Shown piece by piece: positions 10,782 to 32,814 of a stretch of 64,000 bases of DNA; position 1 is the first letter of the stretch, and every line of letters begins with the position of its first letter. The notes under the pieces are model-generated. The model was given only the letters and a program-made list of their open reading frames with translations. It had not been told where the DNA came from and searched no databases. A program made the position numbers and the translations under genes. Source of the DNA: a virus (Duplodnaviria > Caudoviricetes); IMG/VR virus record IMGVR_UViG_3300044614_001923; one strand, given 5' to 3'.

Positions 10782-10809
10782 GCACCCCTCTGTAATATTC
10801 TGTTTATAT

Positions 10810-11896: not shown

Positions 11897-11918
11897 CACT
11901 CAACTTATGAGTATGTTA

Positions 11919-27859: not shown

Positions 27860-27890
27860 AAAAAAGGTGGGTTTATGCAACCCACCTTTT
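27860..27890 (-). terminator. Intrinsic terminator between the RNA modules and the epimerase
   Basis: AAAGGTGGG...CCCACCTTT plus T-run. Confidence 0.75.
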
Positions 27891-27900
27891 GCAATTATTT

Positions 27901-28045
27901 CAGGCTCGCCACCAATTCTTTGGCTGGAAATTGGAAACCAGGCGGGAGAGAGTCCCATCCGCACCACTTGCTTTTTAATGGAAAAGCAAGAAACCAAAAT
28001 GAGGGTCAAATTGACTCCACCACTTAGTTTTAAGAAACTAAGAAA
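27901..28045 (-). ncRNA. Tandem structured RNA modules, wcaG-motif-like
   Basis: Three repeats of TTTC-hairpin-(G/T)TGG(TG/CG); directly upstream of a WcaG-family epimerase. Name recalled from memory. Confidence 0.5.
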
Positions 28046-28305: not shown

Positions 28306-28545
28306 TTACTCATCATCATCCTTTACATAACAAGGAACACGATCTGGATCTAACCATTTCGCATATTCAATGTCTTCCATAGCAAGAGAACATTGCATTA
28401 CATTATCAAAAAGATAAATGTCATTCCAGCGTTTTGTATATTCGTTTTGTTTTTGCATTCGATAATCGGGTTTACCGTTTATCTCCAAAATACCTGCTTC
28501 TACAAAACGATATCCTTCACGTTCAAGAAGAACTTTGGTTTTCAT
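28306..28545 (-). CDS. Conserved cyanophage hypothetical protein
   Basis: 79 aa; ATGA overlap. Confidence 0.7.
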   Translation of the reverse strand: MKTKVLLEREGYRFVEAGILEINGKPDYRMQKQNEYTKRWNDIYLFDNVMQCSLAMEDIEYAKWLDPDRVPCYVKDDDE

Positions 28546-28757
28546 GCAACCTCAACGGATTGAAGATCAGAAAGAACATAGTCCATAAGCATTTCGTAAT
28601 CATCAAGAGGATCACCAGAAAATACTACACCTTCATTCTCATAAAACCGACGAACTTTCTTATAGAGTTTTGGGTTTTTTACATCAAGATAAAAATCCCC
28701 ATTTGCTGCGCCGCGGAGAGTCTGAACGTCTTTCTTGAATTTTGCTGTAAGAGTCAT
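28542..28757 (-). CDS. Conserved cyanophage hypothetical protein
   Basis: MTLTAKFKKD...YLDVKNPKLYKKV; start set at the internal Met. Confidence 0.7.
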   Translation of the reverse strand: MTLTAKFKKDVQTLRGAANGDFYLDVKNPKLYKKVRRFYENEGVVFSGDPLDDYEMLMDYVLSDLQSVEVA

Positions 28758-28832
28758 TGTTTTGAATGTTGACCTTGTTATTATAAAAGTTTGACTTAAA
28801 GAAGTCAAGTAGGACAGTTTCACATCTGCCCA

Positions 28833-32739: not shown

Positions 32740-32814
32740 TGCCCTCTGTCTAGGAATCGAACCCAGTTTCCATGTGTGTTATCCACCCGTCCTTACCAAT
32801 AGACTACCAGAGGG
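32740..32814 (-). ncRNA. tRNA-like element with non-canonical anticodon arm
   Basis: Acceptor CCCTCTG/CAGAGGG, D and T arms present; no regular 5-bp/7-nt anticodon arm. Confidence 0.6.

Follow-up and report, generated by a model that had tools for sequence, protein, structure and literature searches.

Does a row of small RNA structures ahead of a phage glycan island act as the gate of that island? We explored this question in a 64-kb stretch of viral DNA (called the window below, meaning the whole stretch analyzed), which belongs to a T4-like cyanomyophage. The region has BLAST matches to Synechococcus and Prochlorococcus phages only, and the window contains 25–26 tRNAs (24 by an Rfam gathering-threshold scan), a PhotoRC-II RNA, and one wcaG RNA. 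A preliminary description, made from the sequence alone, had proposed that three tandem RNA modules on the minus strand, together with a strong terminator behind them, gate a glycan operon of about 14 kb, and it had compared the modules with the wcaG riboswitch candidate. Taken by itself, the locus is ordinary, one more case in which a known RNA precedes the glycan island of a phage. However, our analysis indicated that the RNA is longer than its model, and that it probably does not gate the sugar-gene island alone, a conclusion drawn from promoter and terminator motifs.

Identity and unit structure of the RNA

The wcaG RNA was described in 2010 as an orphan riboswitch candidate and was graded as a probable switch (Weinberg et al. 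2010, PMC2864571). In the papers searched (PMC2864571, PMC9602691, PMC9964418) it is solely a predicted cis-regulator, and no ligand or binding protein is reported for it. The Rfam search that had been suggested as a check gave a full-length match to wcaG (RF01761) at 27998–27898 on the minus strand (100.7 bits, E = 3.7 × 10−18, against a curated gathering score of 42 bits), covering model positions 1–98 of 98. The supposed likeness to wcaG was therefore correct. In the same window, manA gave no match at the Rfam gathering score.

Modules 2 and 3 of the preliminary description are exactly the RF01761 match, while module 1 lies outside the model and produced a secondary alignment of just 24 bits. 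From end to end, the matched part agrees with the family in helices P1, P2, and P3, in the P3-loop pseudoknot, and in the two UGGYG cores, both of which are present. The setting agrees with that given by Weinberg et al. as well, namely, a T4-like cyanophage with a wcaG-like epimerase gene downstream. It also fits the range of the family, which is known from T4-like cyanophages or marine metagenomes and precedes exopolysaccharide or high-light genes. By every testable defining feature the locus belongs to wcaG, and the array in the window is the known cyanophage wcaG RNA in an extended natural form. Three differences were found. The element is longer than the RF01761 model, with a third contiguous unit and a fourth beyond an embedded open reading frame (ORF); it has a second pseudoknot, in the P1 loop, in addition to the one in the 2010 alignment; and a promoter or promoter-like site separates it from the downstream gene, unlike wcaG as described in 2010.

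Four homologous units, each about 40–55 nt long and all on the minus strand, make up the chain that we call the array, and Rfam models the last two alone. Unit A (28303–28260) consists of a 4-bp hairpin whose 7-nt loop contains GG, an A-rich linker, the core CUGGUC, and a small hairpin with a GGG/CCC stem. Unit B (28046–28003), which is module 1, has UUUUC (28046–28042), a 7-bp hairpin (28041–28024), a GUGGUGG core that begins at 28023, and a small bulged hairpin that extends to 28003. Unit C (27996–27941), or module 2, is the 5′ half of Rfam wcaG; it is made up of a strand of the UGG/CCA pseudoknot, UUUC (27993–27990), the P1 hairpin (27989–27968), the GUGGUGCGGA core (27967–27958), and the GC-type P2 hairpin (27957–27943). 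Unit D (27941–27903), or module 3, is the 3′ half and contains the CUGG/CCAG pseudoknot, UUUC (27937–27934), the P3 hairpin (27933–27913), and GUGGCGAGCC, with the core at 27912–27903. In common they have a small head, which forms a pseudoknot in C and D, and a UGGY core that is single-stranded; A–C have a short GC hairpin as well. In a MAFFT alignment of the units, B and C were one column out of register. All three modules of the preliminary description were thus recovered in their places, and its view of an array built of repeated units was extended to four.

We scanned both strands of the window for a UUUC-type lead followed by a hairpin of 5 bp or more and a UGGY core, and this strict pattern matched exactly three places, the three modules. 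With two other places that matched a second, looser pattern, the whole scan gave five matches; 30 shuffled controls gave 0.53 on average and 2 at most. No further pseudoknot-type units were found by this pattern scan elsewhere in the 64 kb. Taken singly, the modules are thermodynamically unremarkable (folding z from −0.9 to −2.1), so that the support for them is comparative.

All 78 phage records that matched wcaG were Synechococcus phages or cyanophages. Among 185,579 cellular genomes, 10 pattern matches were obtained and just one of them was a true wcaG, on a contig with phage-like content (a manA RNA and tRNAs); the other nine had no wcaG score and were considered as chance matches. Rfam found one array per phage genome in five records, with no second wcaG array reported, and it reports a single match per locus even where four units are present.

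Covariation and unit number in related loci

To collect related loci, we used a degenerate pattern in which three conserved single-stranded stretches were fixed and all helices were left free. This pattern recovered 118 IMG/VR loci, about 100 of them distinct; the invariance of the cores in this set is no evidence of conservation, because the cores were fixed by the search pattern. Covariation was analyzed in the 41 related loci that share the architecture of the window. Compensatory changes were found at 4 of the 7 pairs of the unit B hairpin (96.9% of cells paired), at 5 of 7 pairs of P1, and at 5 of 6 pairs of P3, while P2 was invariant or showed merely G-C to G-U exchanges. The observed covariation was reached by 0 of 500 shuffles and by no slid register. 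In the head stem of the unit A type, all four pairs showed compensatory changes (39 sequences). The preliminary description had seen covariation between the modules of one genome, and our result shows that it holds across genomes too, beyond paralogous modules.

The pseudoknots gave a similar picture. In the window, CUGG (27941–27938) pairs with CCAG (27927–27924) in the P3 loop. This pseudoknot is annotated as SS_cons_1 in the 2010 Stockholm alignment (PMC2864571). Its pairing is possible in all of the 99 loci, and its rare variants covary (AGG/CCU). A second pseudoknot, unmarked in that alignment, is formed by the three bases before the first UUUC and the start of the P1 loop. It covaries as GAG/CUC, AGG/CCU, and UGG/CCA, and it was found in 85 of 97 loci (shuffled mean 66, maximum 75). 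Since it is equivalent to the pseudoknot of P3, both halves of wcaG share one design; that is, a small H-type pseudoknot with UUUC as its first loop and an A-rich third loop, followed by UGGYG. In the 2010 supplement only the duplicated UGGYG was noted, and it was suggested as a possible site for a dimeric protein (PMC2864571).

We then examined the number of units. At least one extra unit was present directly upstream of the Rfam match in 82 of 101 loci. The extra units have two types of head; one is a pseudoknot-style hairpin like that of module 1, and the other is the 4-bp hairpin whose 7-nt loop contains GG. Contiguous chains of two, three, four, and five units occurred in 19, 44, 28, and 1 of 97 loci, respectively, and the three-unit form of the window was the commonest single architecture (37 loci). 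All 40 loci with the module 1 of the window have another unit farther upstream, which is separated by a 233-nt gap with a 75-aa ORF in 37 of them and adjacent in the other three. In Syn9 and S-PM2, the units stand in other orders. The flanks of the 2010 alignment already contain such chains, including overlapping entries from one scaffold (PMC2864571). None of the wcaG papers searched (PMC2864571, PMC9602691, PMC9964418) describes the chain of units, the pseudoknot in the P1 loop, the ORF within the array, or the promoter in the terminator.

A varying number of units is unusual for a single-ligand aptamer. Several similar structured units ahead of a single terminator are also found in tandem-aptamer riboswitches, such as the glycine riboswitch, and the wcaG array resembles them in its row of similar units before one terminator. 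However, wcaG units vary from two to five, their order is shuffled, and no expression-platform pairing was found for them.

The embedded ORF in the window (phrog_2318, 75 aa, 28257–28030, minus strand) appears hydrophobic, with two likely membrane helices, and lies between units A and B. Its last codons and its stop (28032–28030) are inside the unit B hairpin, with the stop in the loop. At its other end, the GGG/CCC hairpin of unit A contains GGAG 10 nt ahead of the ATG, and because of this position the small hairpin may mask the ribosome-binding site of the ORF.

Position in the transcript and the terminator/promoter cassette

Within 150 nt ahead of the array, a promoter-like motif was detected in only 1 of 97 loci. 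Of these 97 loci, 91 had an upstream ORF that stopped close to the array, and in about 75 the array started no more than 30 nt from this stop or overlapped it. The upstream ORF in the window is a 79-aa ORF with unknown function (phrog_481, 28545–28306, minus strand), which ends 2 nt ahead of unit A; about half of the related loci have a homologue of it upstream of their arrays. It is preceded by another small ORF with unknown function (phrog_552, 28757–28542, minus strand, 71 aa from an internal ATG). Our pattern scan placed a candidate early promoter, TTGACT-N17-TATAAT, at 28808–28780 on the minus strand. This candidate has an AT-rich inverted repeat of its own, 7 bp long, which includes its −35 element. 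It falls within the longest reading of the ORF at 28542–28823, so this ORF probably begins at the internal ATG at 28757. From these motifs we infer that the array has no promoter of its own and is the 3′-terminal part of an early polycistronic transcript begun near 28780. Still farther upstream, a 67-aa ORF (29227–29024, minus strand) between tRNA genes has a weak match to the Phd/YefM antitoxin family (23.5 bits, below the Pfam cut-off of 29.8), and a tRNA match at 32813–32742 (minus strand), barely over the Rfam cut-off (30.1 vs. 29 bits), was identified as tRNA-Val(AAC) by ARAGORN.

Behind the array, the strong terminator of the preliminary description was confirmed as an intrinsic terminator at 27890–27862 on the minus strand, with a 12-bp stem, a U7 tail, a folding energy of −18.5 kcal/mol, and z = −4.4. 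It begins 12 nt after unit D. A sigma-70-type promoter is predicted within and behind it (27880–27852, minus strand). The −35-like TTGCAT (27880–27875) lies in the loop of the terminator, and after a 17-nt spacer the TATAAT (27857–27852) follows the U-run, 26 nt before the ATG of the epimerase.

This arrangement is common. A terminator follows the array in 94 of 100 loci, nearly always at 8–24 nt and mostly at 10–13 nt, with outliers at 32 nt and 53 nt in one locus each. In 84 of the 94 terminator-bearing loci, a −10-like hexamer stands directly after the U-run, and 72 of these hexamers are exactly TATAAT. The terminator loop holds a −35-like hexamer with a spacing of exactly 17 nt in 69 loci, which is TTGCAT in 47, TTTACA in 15, and TTGACA in 7. 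Several of the remaining loci have the T4-late-type TATAAATA in place of the sigma-70-type −10 hexamer. In four terminator-less loci, the start codon is 13–23 nt behind the array, which fits cis control.

The promoter-early stem-loops (PeSLs) of T4-like phages have been described by Arbiol et al. (2010, PMC2839356) and Comeau et al. (2014, PMC4122927). In RB49/phi1, such cassettes have been measured to act both as promoters and as terminators (PMC2839356). By its sequence features, 27890–27852 is a PeSL-type composite of terminator and promoter. Like a PeSL, it combines a terminator-like stem-loop with a sigma-70-type promoter in an intergenic position of a hyperplastic region. It differs in that its −35 element sits in the hairpin loop, and in that wcaG-linked cassettes are fused to a structured RNA 8–24 nt upstream. 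The two PeSL papers deal with coliphages and vibriophages and leave cyanophages unmentioned (PMC2839356, PMC4122927). A second cassette of this type, without any wcaG RNA, is present in the window at 10791–10769 (minus strand). The PeSL-type hairpins of the window have the sigma-70-type −35 element in the loop or the 3′ arm and TATAAT 17 nt downstream.

PeSLs have been proposed to mediate the modular shuffling of hyperplastic regions (PMC2839356, PMC4122927). The wcaG array could likewise be a DNA-level element, with a functionless RNA, that offers homology for the recombinational shuffling of island cassettes between co-infecting phages. This would fit the place of the array, where a hypervariable island begins, and the change of the first island gene from locus to locus (21 downstream clusters), as well as the proposed role of PeSLs as recombination linkers (PMC2839356, PMC4122927). 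However, compensatory changes preserve four helices and two pseudoknots. Selection for DNA homology does not produce compensatory pairing, and a purely DNA-level role is thus contradicted; we regard it as very improbable.

Relation of the array to the glycan island

The glycan/nucleotide-sugar island extends over 27826–13484 on the minus strand and includes 20 abutting or overlapping ORFs; its length of roughly 14 kb is the one that the preliminary description had given for the epimerase-headed operon after the terminator. Its first ORF is an NAD-dependent epimerase (27826–26774, minus strand). The ORFs of the island also include cytidylyltransferase-like, PfkB kinase, cupin, UDP-galactopyranose mutase, Fringe-like GT, HAD/nucleotidyltransferase, FkbM methyltransferase, WavE, GT1-like, and GT25 members, and by Pfam most of them fall in nucleotide-sugar or glycan chemistry. 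After the island, an OprB-family carbohydrate-selective porin with an SLH domain (13385–11919) lies on the same strand, ahead of a terminator at 11897–11872, and it may share the transcription unit of the island.

Across the loci, the first downstream gene was an epimerase in 53 and cytidylyltransferase-like in 15. In others, it was a nucleotidyltransferase, carbamoyltransferase, mannose-6-P isomerase, radical SAM protein, 2OG-Fe(II) oxygenase, or another gene, and the downstream genes formed 21 clusters in all. The array is followed by tRNA genes in L006, L108, L122, S-CREM1, and S-PM2, and in Syn9 by a perfect TTGACA-N17-TATAAT and then by hli genes. The enrichment of sugar genes from unrelated families argues for some cis relation between the array and its neighbors. 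However, a simple, dedicated leader is disfavored by the tRNA and hli cases, together with the promoters in between.

A classical riboswitch, that is, a leader that binds a metabolite, has the terminator for an expression platform, and is the main on/off gate of the 14-kb island, would explain part of these results. The unpaired nucleotides are highly conserved, and stems and pseudoknots covary, as in riboswitch aptamers; the sugar-gene context and the terminator close behind the array in 94% of loci would also fit, and Weinberg et al. graded wcaG as a probable switch (PMC2864571). However, a riboswitch lies in a 5′ leader, and here the sequence motifs place a promoter-like site between the RNA and the ATG, a site that is conserved between the RNA and the downstream genes. 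The array also lacks its own promoter and reaches into the 3′ ends of ORFs, it has from two to five units, and in some genomes it precedes tRNA or hli genes. Neither was an anti-terminator pairing found: the native duplex of array and terminator (−10.71) was close to the permuted ones (−10.54, sd 0.12), although the power of this comparison is low because the array is highly conserved. We therefore consider the riboswitch reading improbable.

Gating of the whole island thus needs revision. The wcaG RNA, the terminator, and the island are real, but the RNA as the sole gate does not agree with the promoter-like site in the terminator. With a promoter in the terminator loop and tail, island transcripts could start downstream of the RNA, and in that case the array would end an early unit rather than be the only leader. 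We infer that the promoter at 27880–27852 is active for the glycan island.

An account that we tentatively prefer, and to which we give a little less than an even chance, is that a 3′-terminal array binds a factor and modulates the adjacent termination, so that it tunes the read-through into an island with its own promoter. The early transcript from near 28780 would end in the folded unit chain. The chain would bind a factor through its repeated UGGY units, with metabolites, proteins, and RNA ends as candidates for this factor. Once it is bound, RNA polymerase would stop at the adjacent PeSL-type terminator with a different efficiency, and the variable read-through from the upstream early unit would add to the promoter-driven transcription of the island. 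The array would then tune the island rather than gate it. The tie to the terminator (94 of 100 loci) and the sugar genes of different families downstream support this tuning. On the other hand, the lack of an anti-terminator pairing, the tRNA or hli genes downstream of some arrays, and the PeSL-type cassettes without wcaG count against it; because such cassettes exist, the terminator may be ordinary punctuation.

Possible partners of the UGGY units

A different explanation would free the array from its downstream genes. It may act in trans or as a scaffold, as a stable 3′-terminal non-coding RNA on whose UGGY units several copies of a protein or RNA partner (tRNA 3′ ends, for instance) would dock, with the island unregulated by the array and the terminator serving only to end the RNA. 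Termination or tRNA processing would release the chain together with its terminator hairpin. The varying copy number and the shuffled order of the units agree with such an RNA, as does an array without its own promoter placed right behind an ORF stop. It would also accord with the promoter between array and downstream gene in most loci and with the tRNA genes, or the cluster of tRNA, manA, and abiF, directly after the array in L006, L108, L122, S-CREM1, and S-PM2. The 2010 authors, moreover, suggested that a dimeric protein might bind at the duplicated UGGYG. However, a pure trans role does not predict the enrichment of nucleotide-sugar genes across unrelated families. Overall, we regard this explanation as possible but rather unlikely.

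The UGGY sequence can base-pair with RCCA, with which tRNAs end. We compared the unit tails with 173 distinct phage tRNA acceptor ends. The core of unit A can pair with the 3′ end of the phage tRNA-Pro(UGG) over 8–9 contiguous pairs, which random tails reach in about 3–8%. The 8 contiguous pairs by themselves favor the trans explanation, but they are also reached by about 8% of random UGG-anchored tails. Unit B reached 8 pairs with the phage tRNA acceptor ends, while units C and D reached only 6, which is not significant. As a test of tRNA docking, this comparison is weak.

T-box leaders offer a comparison here, since their UGGN bulge pairs with the NCCA end of tRNA. The wcaG array is similar in having a conserved single-stranded UGGY beside a helix, near a terminator, in tRNA-rich genomes. 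However, it has no Stem I, no specifier, and no antiterminator/terminator overlap, and its units C and D have no significant tRNA complementarity beyond UGGY.

A protein partner was considered as well. The GGA loops of the heads of the unit A type resemble CsrA sites, and a phage-encoded CsrA partner was rejected because no PF02599 domain was found in Syn9, S-PM2, or S-CREM1. The absence of a CsrA-like protein from these three wcaG-bearing phages also weakens the trans explanation.

More broadly, wcaG may be no compact riboswitch leader of two hairpins but only the tail of a variable chain of two to five or more units, one that tolerates an inserted gene and is insulated by a promoter, and whose units are docking sites for several copies of a macromolecule. 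We consider this broad reading doubtful. It would cover the two head types, the shuffled order, and the location at the 3′ end of early cyanophage transcripts, and for this wider coverage, too, our confidence is low. Its most interesting partner would be the RCCA 3′ end of tRNAs, bound in T-box fashion. If that were true, the chain would be a sensor of tRNA status or a sponge for tRNA ends during infection.

The matter is of practical concern because genome annotations of cyanophages routinely present wcaG, an orphan riboswitch candidate since 2010, as a regulator that acts in cis on sugar genes. The choice of sensible experiments changes when the model covers the last two units only, the chain stands at the 3′ end of a transcript, and a conserved promoter usually intervenes before the next gene.

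In some phages, wcaG heads a cluster of non-coding genes (tRNAs, a manA RNA, and an abiF RNA) instead of protein genes, as in L122 (41–725, minus strand) and S-CREM1 (OP535465.1, 9745–10567). L122 is a 27-kb contig with phage-like content (a manA RNA and tRNAs) that was binned in an ‘Acidimicrobiaceae’ MAG.
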